From positions 192,001 through 256,000 of the forward strand of contig CAWJQC010000007.1 of the NCBI GenBank assembly GCA_963844965.1: a DNA stretch of 64,000 nucleotides, given 5' to 3'. Under the pieces are notes generated by a model. The model worked only from the letters and a program-made list of their open reading frames with translations, was not told where the DNA came from and ran no database searches. Both the position numbers and the translations under genes were made by a program. Positions 23,848-60,424 of this stretch are shown in pieces. The stretch is from an uncultured bacterium (lineage in GTDB: Bacteria; Patescibacteriota; Minisyncoccia; UBA6257; 2-01-FULL-56-20). The first letter of the stretch is position 1. Every line of letters starts with the position of its first letter.

Positions 23848-24609
23848 TTAGTTCGTGGCGTACTTCAAAATTAGCGATAATGCCTCATACCAGCTCGCCG
23901 CTGCTTTGACTGGATATTTGCGGCCCAATTCGGCCAGCATGATACCAGCGATGCAACCGTCGGTGACGACTATTCCTCCGGAATCTCCTGGGACAGCCTC
24001 CACGTCACAGAGCGTAGTTCGCAATTCTCTGCCGTGGTCGTTCGTTTCGTGCGTTTCTATCGTGAACCCGCCCCTCACAACGATTGAGCCGTTCCTTCTC
24101 GTCAATAAGACCACCGGTTTCTTGTGGGACTTGGAAAAAGTGTCCGTTTGCATGAAGCGGTAAAGTTTCGCGTCCGCCAGACCTTCAAGTTCGGCTTTGG
24201 CAAGAGCAATATCCGCCTTTTCATCCTTGATGCAGACGCGCGATATGCGGGCGACCCTTCCCGAGTGCATCCTTATCTTCTCGTTCGTGATGTCTTTTGC
24301 GACGCAATGTGCGGCAGTTATGAAATAACCGTTCTCGGTTATGAGAAATCCATTACCGCGGTGAGTTCCGTTTTCACAGAGCAGTTCCACTACGCCGTTT
24401 TCCACCAGTTGCTGGGCTTCGCCGACCGAGAGAGCTTCGCCGTAATAAAAGTTTTGCGTGAATTTCAACAGCGCGGCTCTGTCTTCGTCGCTCTTTTTCT
24501 CGGAACGAAGCTTTCTTGCGAGCAAGGCAAGCCAATTTTTCAAGATTGCCACCTCCTGTATCCGCCGTGTTCTGTTGCGAAGTATAATGTCGTTACAATC
24601 AACTTGCAA
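23848..24609 (-). CDS. trypsin-like (S1 family) serine protease
   Basis: Catalytic His in TAAHC, Asp, and Ser in GDSGG. Confidence 0.8.
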   Translation of the reverse strand: MQVDCNDIILRNRTRRIQEVAILKNWLALLARKLRSEKKSDEDRAALLKFTQNFYYGEALSVGEAQQLVENGVVELLCENGTHRGNGFLITENGYFITAAHCVAKDITNEKIRMHSGRVARISRVCIKDEKADIALAKAELEGLADAKLYRFMQTDTFSKSHKKPVVLLTRRNGSIVVRGGFTIETHETNDHGRELRTTLCDVEAVPGDSGGIVVTDGCIAGIMLAELGRKYPVKAAASWYEALSLILKYATN

Positions 24610-24654
24610 GCGTATATGCGCCAGCGATTATTTGACCCGCTCCGCCGCAAGCCC

Positions 24655-25200
24655 CGGCCTTTAGGCCGAGGATAAGGCGACCCCGTAGCCCCGAGCGAAG
24701 CGAGGGGCGGAGGGCTTATTTGCCTGTTCCCACTGGTTTCTGCCGGTGCGATAATGAAGATAATGCCCTCTGGATTCTGGCCAAGCAACCACAGCTATAC
24801 GCGATGTTTGTACCACGTTGTTTTCTGCCCAAAGTACCGCCGCTCGATACTGCGAGGGGACATGGTCGGGCGACTCAAGACATTGTTCTTTCAAGCCGCC
24901 AAGATGAATAAATGGTTCATCCATGAAGCGCAGATAATGCCCGACCATGTCCATCTATTGCTTCAAATTCCTGCTACCCTGACGGTTGCCAAAGCGGTGT
25001 TTTATCTCAAAGGCGGTACGTCCAGGGCTGTCAGAAAAGAATTTCCCGAGCTGGAAGAATTCCTCTGGGGAGACAGCTTGTGGCAGGATGGTTACTTTGC
25101 CGAAACCGTTGGCCGTCAAAACGAAAAAGCGATGAGAGAATATATCAGAAACCAGTGGGAACAGGAGCCGAACACAAGCCGCGGGCTTTAGCCCGCGGTG
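24655..25200 (+). mobile_element. IS200/IS605-family element (tnpA only) bounded by perfect 20-bp inverted repeats and GC-rich hairpins
   Basis: cctgttcccactggtttctg at 24723-24742 and its exact reverse complement at 25146-25165; hairpins at 24688-24708 and 25176-25199. Confidence 0.7.
24754..25191 (+). CDS. tnpA: IS200/IS605 Y1 (HUH) transposase TnpA / RAYT-like
   Basis: YHVVFCPKYRR N-terminus, HUH motif HVHLLL, catalytic Tyr region; 145 aa. Confidence 0.85.
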   Translation: MKIMPSGFWPSNHSYTRCLYHVVFCPKYRRSILRGDMVGRLKTLFFQAAKMNKWFIHEAQIMPDHVHLLLQIPATLTVAKAVFYLKGGTSRAVRKEFPELEEFLWGDSLWQDGYFAETVGRQNEKAMREYIRNQWEQEPNTSRGL

Positions 25201-25270
25201 ATTGACAATTGTAAAAGAGGCATGTTACAAGGTAGGAAGTTCGCCCACACCGTTCAGTGGGAGGTACGAA

Positions 25271-25573
25271 ATGACCATAACCGAAGAAGATTTCATGGTT
25301 GGAGACACCGTGGAGTGGAAAGGAGATGAATCCCTGCCAGAGGAAGATGACAGGGAAAATATCAAGCTCCTCAAGAAGCTTTTCGGCCCCGGACCATTTT
25401 CTGTAAGAAGAACTGCGCCGATAGAGAACGATGAAGCAATTCATACCAGGCATCACCAGTTTTTGGAATTAAGTGATGCTACCGGAGAAACGGTGAACCG
25501 CCTGGATTTGGGCATAGGCGGTAAGCTTTCAGGTTTTTGGTTCGTGAAGGTTTCTTCGGCCAAGCCAAACTAA
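25271..25573 (+). CDS. hypothetical small acidic protein
   Basis: ORF with Shine-Dalgarno-like context; no domain recognised. Confidence 0.3.
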   Translation: MTITEEDFMVGDTVEWKGDESLPEEDDRENIKLLKKLFGPGPFSVRRTAPIENDEAIHTRHHQFLELSDATGETVNRLDLGIGGKLSGFWFVKVSSAKPN

Positions 25574-34395: not shown

Positions 34396-34466
34396 GCCAC
34401 CTTAGCTCAGCGGTAGAGCAGCACTTTCGTAAAGTGACGGTCCCGGTTCAAATCCGGGAGGTGGCT
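34396..34466 (+). tRNA. tRNA, anticodon most likely CGT (Thr); CCA not encoded
   Basis: Acceptor gccacct/aggtggc, D arm gctc-agcggta-gagc, anticodon loop ttCGTaa, T arm cccgg-ttcaaat-ccggg. Confidence 0.75.
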
Positions 34467-34598
34467 CAAAACCGACCGGATTTGAACGAAGGGTGGGTCG
34501 GAGGGAAAGCGGCCGGGTTCCCTCCGTGCGGGAAATTATTCAGAACCGTGGGTTCTGAAAGCGCAGCCCCGAGCTTGTCGAGGGGCGAGCAGTGAAAT

Positions 34599-34615
34599 AT
34601 CCGGGAGGTGGCTCA
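34599..34615 (+). repeat. 17-nt direct repeat of the tRNA 3' end (atccgggaggtggctca; first copy 34452-34468)
   Basis: Exact duplicate of the T-loop-to-3'-end segment 147 bp downstream; att-like. Confidence 0.7.
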
Positions 34616-34808
34616 GAGAAGTGGCGGGGTGAAGCGGAGCAATGCTTTTCCGCCAGAGGCGGATAAACTCCAAGCAGAGGTTGGAGGCCTGCCCCGTACA
34701 ATTGCGAAGCAATTTGTTCGGGGTTCGACTCCTCCCTGCCGGCAGGCGGGCCTGCCGGCGCAGGCGGGTCTCCGGCTCCAGAAAATAAATTTAAAATATA
34801 CGTAATTA

Positions 34809-43565: not shown

Positions 43566-43919
43566 GGTACCCGAGACCCATGGATGTCCGCCCCGACCGC
43601 AGTCGGGGCGTTTTTTGGCCGCGCGCACCGGCGTGTGCCCAGTAGTAGACCGAGCACCTCGCTTTCCTCAATGCCTTGAGGTTGGGCTGGGTTTTTGCAT
43701 AAAGCTGTAAATTTGTTGTTGTCAGCGCTGTGATAATGAAAGCGTGCGGGCGTTGCAGTGCTCGGCTCACTACTGGGTGTGTTATAATGTAATCAATGGT
43801 CCCGTTAGAAGCCGCGATCGCTTTGGCGGGACAGTTGATGTTTTTTTGGACATAAGATAGTCGTTTTCCCAAATTAAATAAATTTAGCAGGTTACTTATC
43901 GCGATCTGCTTCTAACGGG

Positions 43920-46531: not shown

Positions 46532-46639
46532 CCGCGATGGGATTAAGGTGTTTTGCTGACGCAAAACAGCCTTTGTGAAGCAACACCCGGCGCTTTTGGA
46601 AATAAAAATCGCCCCGATCTGTCTGATCGGGGCGCGCTG

Positions 46640-60390: not shown

Positions 60391-60424
60391 GTTTTCGCGG
60401 AAAAGCCCCACCATTTGGTGGGGC

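Follow-up and report, generated by a model that had tools for sequence, protein, structure and literature searches.

A conserved long-range helix inside an IS200-group element

The window analysed here is a 64-kb stretch from the genome of an uncultured Patescibacteriota bacterium (contig CAWJQC010000007.1, positions 192,001 to 256,000). Positions 24637-25206 of its + strand are, with near certainty, a TnpA-only insertion sequence (IS) of the IS200 group within the IS200/IS605 family, and the perfect 20-bp inverted repeat that it carries is very probably an internal long-range helix that has been selected for base pairing. The repeat is non-terminal and connects the interior of the left end (LE), upstream of the transposase gene tnpA, with the codons after the catalytic Tyr. 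An earlier sequence-only reading of this region had described a TnpA-only IS200/IS605 unit in which the 20-bp repeat brackets a Y1/HUH gene, with the right-hand copy inside the tnpA coding sequence (CDS), and these observations all hold. It had also called the repeats atypical for IS200, which is borne out insofar as they are unusual and non-random, but they are not terminal inverted repeats: the arms are internal, and the real ends of the element are hairpins arranged as direct repeats. The extent given for the unit, 24655-25200, cut off its left end. The element and the two arms of the helix are located as follows.

24637-25206, + strand: IS200-group insertion sequence, 570 bp, complete (identical copies in other flanks; relatives of the same architecture)
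24723-24742, + strand: 5' arm of the long-range helix, CCTGTTCCCACTGGTTTCTG (covariation with the 3' arm in 10 relatives)
25146-25165, + strand: 3' arm of the long-range helix, matching the reverse complement of CCTGTTCCCACTGGTTTCTG exactly, in the codons for IRNQWEQE (covariation)

A search of the window for the 20-mer returned two matches, compared with 0.01 expected from shuffles. Measured from the element ends, the arms are 86 nt and 41 nt inward. Counted from the first base of the catalytic Tyr codon, the 3' arm begins 5 nt downstream, and 13 nt separate it from the stem of the right-end (RE) hairpin downstream. Related elements, which were gathered by protein look-ups and a metagenome scan, provide the evidence for base pairing, and ten of them are close relatives with 58-67% amino acid identity. 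In a 64%-identical Patescibacteria element, CCTGCCTCCATTGC upstream of tnpA pairs at 13 of 14 positions with the post-Tyr codons GCAATGGAAGCAGG, and compared with the window arms four positions have changed on both sides. Fully paired arms of other sequences or lengths were found in the following elements.

L093: TGATCCCACTGCGC / GCGCAGTGGGATCA, 14 of 14 paired
L107: CCTCCGTCCATTGC / GCAATGGACGGAGG, 14 of 14 paired
L112: TCTTTCTTCTTTTG / CAAAAGAAGAAAGA, 14 of 14 paired
L115: arms of 22-24 nt, perfect pairing
L106: arms of 15 nt, perfect pairing

The pairing of the arms is retained even though the encoded peptide differs (QWEQE, QWDHE, QKKKE, QRNQE), and it is specific to each element, as an arm scores 10-24 with its own partner and a mean of only ~6.7 with the partners from other elements. 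When ten LE+RE constructs were aligned by MAFFT without guidance, RNAalifold called the long-range helix by itself. In the helix alignment, 92.3% of cells are paired and double-sided changes occur in 9 of 13 pairs (28 cells), while the covariation score is 0.638 versus 0.195 for shuffles, with none of 500 shuffles reaching any observed value. Sliding the partner by 1-3 columns reduced the pairing to 33-59%. The helix is also almost purely Watson-Crick, with G.U in just 3 of 130 cells. A second group of elements, 50-55% identical, has shorter open reading frames (ORFs) and the same layout, with the 3' arm at or just after the stop codon (for example, GACATGATCTGGC / GCCAGATCATGTC). In this group, the 3' arm is displaced by indels in the MAFFT alignment, for which reason RNAalifold did not recover the helix, and the support there comes from the self-versus-cross pairing test and from direct inspection. 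The position of the arms relative to the end hairpins was similarly regular. In most elements with a detected RE hairpin, the 3' arm ends 11-15 nt before it (19 nt in one element), regardless of whether the intervening stretch is coding, and in the three elements that lack the second LE hairpin (hp2), the 5' arm begins 11-14 nt after the first (hp1).

A further structure, overlooked in the sequence-only reading, is a perfect 14-nt inverted repeat located entirely within the CDS.

24858-24871, + strand: 5' arm of the inner 14-bp helix, in the GDMVGR codons
24939-24952, + strand: 3' arm of the inner 14-bp helix, in the PDHVH (HUH) codons

The two closest relatives retain this inner helix, in which a single compensatory change has occurred (GGACGTGGTCGG / CCGACCACGTCC), and other members have different repeats nearby. 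When the whole element was folded and compared with shuffled sequences, the top strand gave z = -5.35 as DNA and z = -5.28 as RNA, and the bottom strand gave z = -3.98 as DNA. Both the long-range and the inner helices are present in the minimum free energy and centroid structures.

Element ends, guides, and target site

The order of components across the element is LE hairpin, hp2, 5' arm, promoter-like site, tnpA, 3' arm, RE hairpin, and right end. The sequence-only reading had noted GC hairpins, which are indeed present at 24688-24708 and 25179-25198, and had overlooked the true left-end hairpin, CAAGCCCCGGCCTTTAGGCCGAGG at 24648-24671. The features of the ends are as follows.

24632-24636, + strand: TTGAC, target and left cleavage sequence, in the flank rather than the element (L002 junction and left flanks of relatives)
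24648-24671, + strand: left end, with guide CAAG at 24648-24651 and the imperfect subterminal hairpin hp1, stem 24652-24659/24664-24671, loop TTTA
24688-24708, + strand: hp2, the second LE hairpin, with a tandem G.A/A.G step and a GCGAAGC apex (hairpins in relatives)
25175-25198, + strand: right end, with guide CAAG at 25175-25178 and a perfect 8-bp hairpin, stem 25179-25186/25191-25198, loop TTTA
25202-25206, + strand: right terminal TTGAC, assigned to the element, right cleavage sequence (NNNTTGAC closes the copies and relatives, beyond which the flanks are unrelated)

The LE and RE segments at 24648-24671 and 25175-25198 form an 83% direct repeat in which the differences are compensatory and both stems stay paired. 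The LE hairpin is kept across the clade, and the RE hairpin has compensatory changes in the relatives. With three mismatches allowed, no other hairpin of this type, which is the TnpA-binding type, was found in the 64-kb window. As judged from the sequences of the ends, the left cleavage point would lie between 24636 and 24637, with the left cleavage site 15 nt 5' of the LE hairpin foot, and the right cleavage point is predicted after 25206, 8 nt 3' of the hairpin foot. In the position of hp2, 7 of the 10 close relatives have a hairpin, the stems of which are unrelated in sequence and lie between conserved CCGGAG / CGGAGG flanks; it is absent in L107, L012, and L108. RNAalifold did not call hp2 on the joint LE alignment, and its conservation was assessed by inspection.

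The boundaries of the element were apparent from its copies and relatives. A look-up of the 109-aa public protein led to two short contigs from other sequencing runs, L001 and L002. L002 is 100% identical to the window over 24631-25208 only, with the shared stretch starting at TTTGAC and both flanks unrelated. L001 has the same left flank as the window, a 100% identical element, and divergence after 25202. Since identical copies of the element are found in different flanks, it must have moved recently. In a comparison of the copies, the right end reads ...GGTGATTGAC with divergent sequence beyond, and the stretch from the RE hairpin to the element end is TGATTGAC. A two-hairpin pattern search additionally returned ten genome contigs, five of which derive from a single Patescibacteria metagenome-assembled genome (MAG). 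The 64%-identical element of this MAG ends in ...hairpin-AAGTTGAC and then continues into at least four different flanks. Across the related elements, TTGAC closes every left flank (~15 distinct left flanks) and NNNTTGAC is the right end. As the right end is also TTGAC, an RE component and a 5-bp target-site duplication are indistinguishable from sequence, and no empty site was recovered.

The element thus combines an intact IS200-type Y1 transposase, subterminal palindromes in the same orientation, insertion 3' of TTGAC, and occurrence in differing contexts. It has a single gene in 570 bp, and no TnpB match was found inside or beside it. From its sequence, it is a complete and probably active element. 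It is a new and very compact IS200-group member that is ordinary in kind, with its nearest relatives annotated in Patescibacteria MAGs, and the 20-bp repeat is its point of interest. Rfam contained no family matching the element, even at E values up to 5, and a scan of viral contigs yielded no matches. A classical DDE-type IS with terminal inverted repeats was also considered and rejected, given that the arms are internal and the protein is a Y1 HUH enzyme.

Several observations on the ends of related elements should be mentioned. Shortened right ends without the full terminal TTGAC occur in L001 (905-915, ...GGTGAT followed by GCTTTC), L115 (...GGGGTTG followed by CGTTTT), and L099 (TTGAA), and such copies may be immobilised or may have resulted from deletions next to them. 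At the left junction of L098, ...CCCGGGTGCTGTTGAC is followed directly by CAGGCC, such that a right end abuts a left end; the arrangement stems either from an insertion in tandem, into the TTGAC of the RE itself, or from the capture of a circle junction. Lastly, the same right-end module (CAAG, CCCCGGCC TTTA GGCCGAGG, TAGTTGAC) occurs in the Methanoculleus contig DAOSER010000005.1 (L003, 140-1335), where it lies directly 3' of a TnpB gene (OrfB_IS605 and Cas12f1-like TNB domain) with no tnpA nearby. An archaeal tnpB-only element therefore shares this type of end, and judging from its sequence, TTGAC would be the target-adjacent motif expected for it.

The transposase gene and its predicted expression

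24754-25191, + strand: tnpA, encoding a Y1 HUH transposase, 145 aa from ATG 24754 (ORF and profile matches)
24727-24755, + strand: predicted sigma-70-like promoter, TTCCCA, 17-nt spacer, (TG)GATAAT (promoter scan; the sole + strand site)

As the sequence-only reading had recognised, the ORF at 24754-25191 encodes a Y1 transposase with an HVHLLL motif. The 145-aa protein scores 132.8 bits against Pfam Y1_Tnp (cutoff 23) and 130.8 bits against NCBIfam transpos_IS200 (cutoff 55). The HUH motif corresponds to codons 65-67 (24946-24954) and the catalytic Tyr130 to 25141-25143. H65, H67, Y130, and Q134 are invariant in 23 homologues and align with HIH, Y127, and Q131 of IS608 TnpA. The nearest solved relatives are the TnpA proteins of IS608 (2A6M, E = 4e-21) and ISDra2 (2XM3, E = 7e-21). 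The closest database proteins are 57-67% identical, and the few named ones are 'IS200/IS605 family transposase' from Patescibacteria, Paceibacterota, and Liptonbacteria MAGs, while the best TnpA match among plasmid records is 42% identical. The tnpA stop codon (TAG, 25189-25191) is located within the loop of the RE hairpin, and this hairpin encodes the conserved TnpA C-terminus S-x-G-L-stop (AGC CNC GGN CTT TAG). The public gene call, P0001 (109 aa), begins at Met37, so that the first conserved residues of the Y1 domain are missing from it, which is why an exact-protein look-up of the 145-aa ORF found no match.

Translation more likely starts at ATG 24763 than at ATG 24754, which would yield a protein of 142 aa (MPSGFW...) with a start that resembles the MPKP... 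starts of relatives. GATAAT of the predicted promoter is 7 nt 5' of ATG 24763, and the predicted transcript start is at or near 24763. The 5' arm overlaps the -35-like hexamer and the spacer of this promoter. In 18 of 20 related elements, a -10-like hexamer (xAxxxT) is likewise found 5-9 nt before the start codon, and in the remaining two, a GTG start a few nt downstream restores the 5-9 nt spacing. Leaderless mRNAs would be expected to have just such a spacing. Judging from this consensus, the tnpA mRNA is probably leaderless. If so, the 5' arm is part of the promoter and does not appear in the transcript that the element itself makes, and therefore the helix could form only in single-stranded DNA or in read-through RNA.

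Complementary sites in more distant elements

Many metagenome IS200-group elements of the classical type with 34-47% amino acid identity (L025-L092) likewise show complementarity between a site upstream of the start codon and one near the stop codon. Among 48 distant IS200-group elements, the 5' site lies 10-37 nt before the start and the 3' site around the stop or up to 58 nt after it. The self-pairing score in these elements averages 9.7 versus 6.4 for cross-pairing, and 31 of the 48 are at or above the 95th percentile of the cross scores. In those that were inspected, the complementary site is in the loop of the Shine-Dalgarno stem-loop. From these sequences, the IS200 group as a whole may have a weaker version of the helix. 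The structures already known for IS200 are a left-end terminator hairpin and a stem-loop in which the Shine-Dalgarno sequence is hidden (PMC4513863). We searched the published literature and found no description of an LE-RE or 5'-3' long-range helix in IS200 elements; the helix would seem to be a conserved feature that has not been described before.

A possible role in joining the transposon ends

Our best overall explanation, an IS200-group element equipped with an end-joining helix, is one to which we give about an even chance, and the narrower claim that the helix acts in single-stranded DNA by joining the ends falls slightly short of that. The hairpins, guides, and cleavage sites of the element all lie on one strand, which, together with the GC skew given below, is indirect evidence for strand-specific single-stranded 'peel and paste' transposition. 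By analogy with IS608 and ISDra2, a TnpA dimer would bind the LE and RE hairpins on a single-stranded top strand, and the CAAG guides would pair with TTGAC to set the cleavage sites, with CAA:TTG as Watson-Crick pairs. The element would then be excised as a single-stranded circle and reinserted 3' of TTGAC in single-stranded DNA at replication forks. Elements of the IS200/IS605 family are expected to have their top strand on the lagging-strand template. In the window, the GC skew of the + strand is positive in 14 of 16 4-kb bins, which places the top strand of the element on the lagging-strand template side. Once the top strand is single-stranded, the long-range helix and the inner CDS helix could collapse the ~400-nt body, whereupon the LE and RE hairpins, each on a linker of ~13 nt, would come to lie next to one another for the TnpA dimer. 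A duplex placed next to both ends might then favor synapsis and cleavage within the short lifetime of the single strand at the fork. In vitro, duplex DNA adjoining the single-stranded ends of IS608 speeds TnpA cleavage (PMC5027513). The spacing between arm and hairpin, which remains near constant at ~13 nt in both coding and non-coding stretches, likewise speaks for a role in DNA, as do the predicted exclusion of the 5' arm from the tnpA mRNA and the folding of the top strand well beyond that of shuffled sequences. As a broader and more tentative proposal, TnpA-only IS200-group elements would share an undescribed cis-acting helix that folds the single-stranded transposon and presents both hairpins to one TnpA dimer, with its strength tuning excision and integration; we think this somewhat less probable than the end-joining role in the present element.

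A number of observations weigh against an end-joining role in DNA. The mismatch types in the arms (26 G.T versus 16 A.C among 72) are no guide to whether RNA or DNA is involved, any RNA reading through the element would form the same helix, and the leaderless start that would keep the 5' arm out of the message is deduced from a consensus. IS608 and ISDra2 both transpose without any known long-range helix. Longer elements encoding both tnpA and tnpB should gain the most from end-joining, yet seven such IS605-type elements have no repeat of this kind in either possible position, a result that does not tell synapsis from tnpA regulation. In addition, there is no inverted repeat of at least 8 nt between the 5' and 3' regions of IS200C and IS1541B, in which the complementarity visible by eye is marginal (12 Watson-Crick plus 2 G.T of 16), and even one close relative, L013, has no clear helix.

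The strongest competitor is a fold-back in RNA, which we consider possible but on balance unlikely. Transcripts that read through the element or start upstream of it would pair the 5' arm with the 3' end of the tnpA message, and the resulting helix would either block the ribosome-binding region or serve as an RNase III substrate, in both cases keeping transposase levels low. The location of the helix would suit this function, since it ends 11-18 nt before the start codon in the close relatives and, in the 50-55% identical group, reaches position -1 or overlaps the start codon itself, both of which are within a ribosome footprint. The 5' site of the distant elements is similarly placed, with the inspected examples lying in the loop of a 5' untranslated region (5'UTR) stem-loop, and the IS200 5'UTR stem-loop is transcribed in Salmonella (PMC4513863). 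The element also folds as favorably in RNA as in DNA (z of -5.3), and G.T mismatches slightly outnumber those of A.C. Nevertheless, the -10-like box 5-9 nt before the start predicts a leaderless mRNA from which the 5' arm would be missing, and a partner 400 nt downstream would make a poor translational block under coupled transcription-translation, when a local hairpin would suffice. The ~13-nt spacing to the TnpA-binding hairpins has no obvious rationale in RNA, and the near-purely Watson-Crick helices, with their 3 G.U among 130 cells, also count against this reading.

The other alternatives are considerably weaker. Perhaps the repeat is functionless, either as a relic left when the 3' end of tnpA was partly duplicated in inverted orientation or as the product of template-switch ('quasipalindrome') correction. 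The left arm is, after all, an exact reverse complement of coding sequence, and the perfect arms of several elements could reflect copy-correction. For a relic, however, one-sided decay would be expected, whereas at 50-67% protein identity the arms differ in sequence yet still pair, 9 of 13 pairs covary, and position and spacing stay constant. Arms separated by 400 nt are also far outside the usual range of template-switch correction, and we therefore view this origin as improbable. It is more improbable still that the 20-mers are protein-bound inverted repeats of the terminal type that function in double-stranded DNA, as in DDE-type IS. A perfect inverted repeat does flank the gene, but its arms are set back from the ends by 86 and 41 nt, the 145-aa TnpA consists of a single Y1 domain and has no additional one for DNA binding, and the arm sequences vary freely among elements whose proteins are ~60% identical, which fits pairing and not recognition. 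Least credible of all is a domesticated RAYT-like transposase that services REP-like hairpins at 24688-24708 and 34566-34586, as the sequence-only reading had proposed. That reading reported an 18/21 match between the two hairpins; it is actually 17/21 with four central mismatches and was missed by a search allowing three. The motif GCCCCGAG...CGAGGGGC does occur twice in the window versus 0.00 expected, both occurrences contain the unusual G.A/A.G step, and the local similarity score of 27 exceeds the random maximum of 24. Even so, the similarity is confined to 26 nt, the hairpin at 24688 is not the one with the guide and cleavage site, the copy at 34566 has neither CAAG nor TTGAC, and the window contains no further hairpin of the TnpA-binding type. 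The RAYT model (NF047646, REP_Tyr_transpos) gives 38.6 bits against a cutoff of 80, compared with 130.8 against 55 for the IS200 model. The defined ends and the identical copies in other flanks mark the element as mobile rather than domesticated. Other GCCCC...GGGGC hairpins in the window look like ordinary gene-end hairpins. With no REP-like array in the 64-kb window either, the suggested parallel with RAYT/REP organisation fails in sequence model, arrays, and immobility alike.

Neighboring genes and other hairpins in the window

A divergent ORF encoding a trypsin-like peptidase (23848-24609, - strand) lies to the left of the element, which is 23-28 nt upstream of it, and a minus-strand promoter-like site (24609-24581) adjoins the element. 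The insertion could affect the upstream region of the peptidase gene. Directly to the right of the element is a 100-aa ORF (25271-25573) without a Pfam match.

The hp2-like motif is found only twice in the window. Despite their resemblance and their shared G.A/A.G step, we do not treat hp2 and 34566-34586 as a repeat family. The second copy is near a tRNA-Thr(CGT) gene (34396-34467), the last ~17 nt of which (ATCCGGGAGGTGGCTCA) recur at 34600-34616. Three hairpins are located between the two copies of this tRNA tail, one of them being 34566-34586, and more GC-rich palindromes occur at ~34720-34775. No Rfam family was found in the tRNA-Thr-adjacent region (34396-34800), only sub-threshold noise, and the region may be an integration-site remnant or a small structured insert. 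Further perfect GCCCC...GGGGC hairpins lie at 43590-43609, 46611-46633, and 60405-60424, for a total of five in the window versus 0.87 expected; these three are the ones that look like ordinary gene-end hairpins, unrelated to the element.

Significance

In peel-and-paste models, the transposon ends are independent hairpins that the transposase captures together in transient single-stranded DNA. If the helix is an end-joining scaffold, it would explain how minimal elements achieve synapsis. This could be tested simply with disruptive and compensatory mutants, and the helix could be used to tune engineered single-strand transposons. If it instead acts in RNA, it would represent a new form of transposase self-restraint. 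If the weaker complementarity in 31 of the 48 distant elements is genuine, the helix would be a general and overlooked feature of the IS200 group. Whether the helix acts in DNA or in RNA, annotators are cautioned to regard perfect inverted repeats inside IS200 elements as functional parts and not as terminal repeats or REPs.

Comparison with known systems

The closest parallels are IS200 from Salmonella and E. coli and IS1541 from Yersinia. Like these, the present element is TnpA-only and very small (570 bp versus 707 bp for IS200), encodes a Y1/HUH transposase, has a subterminal LE hairpin and, between it and tnpA, a second internal one, and lacks terminal inverted repeats (PMC4513863). Its TnpA is, however, only about 31-36% identical to theirs (about 31-33% for IS200C and IS1541B), and it has a strong 20-bp LE-RE helix, whereas IS200C and IS1541B have no inverted repeat of at least 8 nt at the equivalent sites. 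Unlike IS200 and IS1541, it has no evident stem-loop sequestering a Shine-Dalgarno sequence and has a -10-like box 7 nt before the ATG instead, its ORF runs into the loop of the RE hairpin, and its target is TTGAC. In IS608 from Helicobacter pylori, a guide lies 5' of each hairpin foot, and cleavage occurs outside the element 19 nt 5' of the foot on the left and inside the element 10 nt 3' of the foot on the right (PMC3201880). The end logic of the present element is the same, with distances of 15 nt on the left and 8 nt on the right, whereas IS608 has a tnpB gene, two distinct cleavage sites (TTAC on the left and TCAA on the right, compared with TTGAC at both ends here), and no reported LE-RE helix. 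ISDra2 from Deinococcus radiodurans has a homologous TnpA and also a pentanucleotide target, TTGAT (PMC2806898), which is one base apart from TTGAC, but it too carries tnpB.

RAYT proteins and their REP-BIME partners (TnpA-REP) have the Y1/HUH fold and hairpin recognition in common with this element, which differs from them in failing the RAYT model, in the lack of REP arrays in the window, and in being mobile with defined ends. For the RNA alternative, IS10 and IS50 offer a functional analogy. In their fold-back inhibition, an end-proximal sequence pairs with the translation-initiation region of the transposase gene in transcripts that start outside the element. The pairing in IS10 and IS50 is local to the 5' end, whereas the partner of the 5' arm here is 400 nt away at the 3' end of the gene, adjoining the opposite transposon end.

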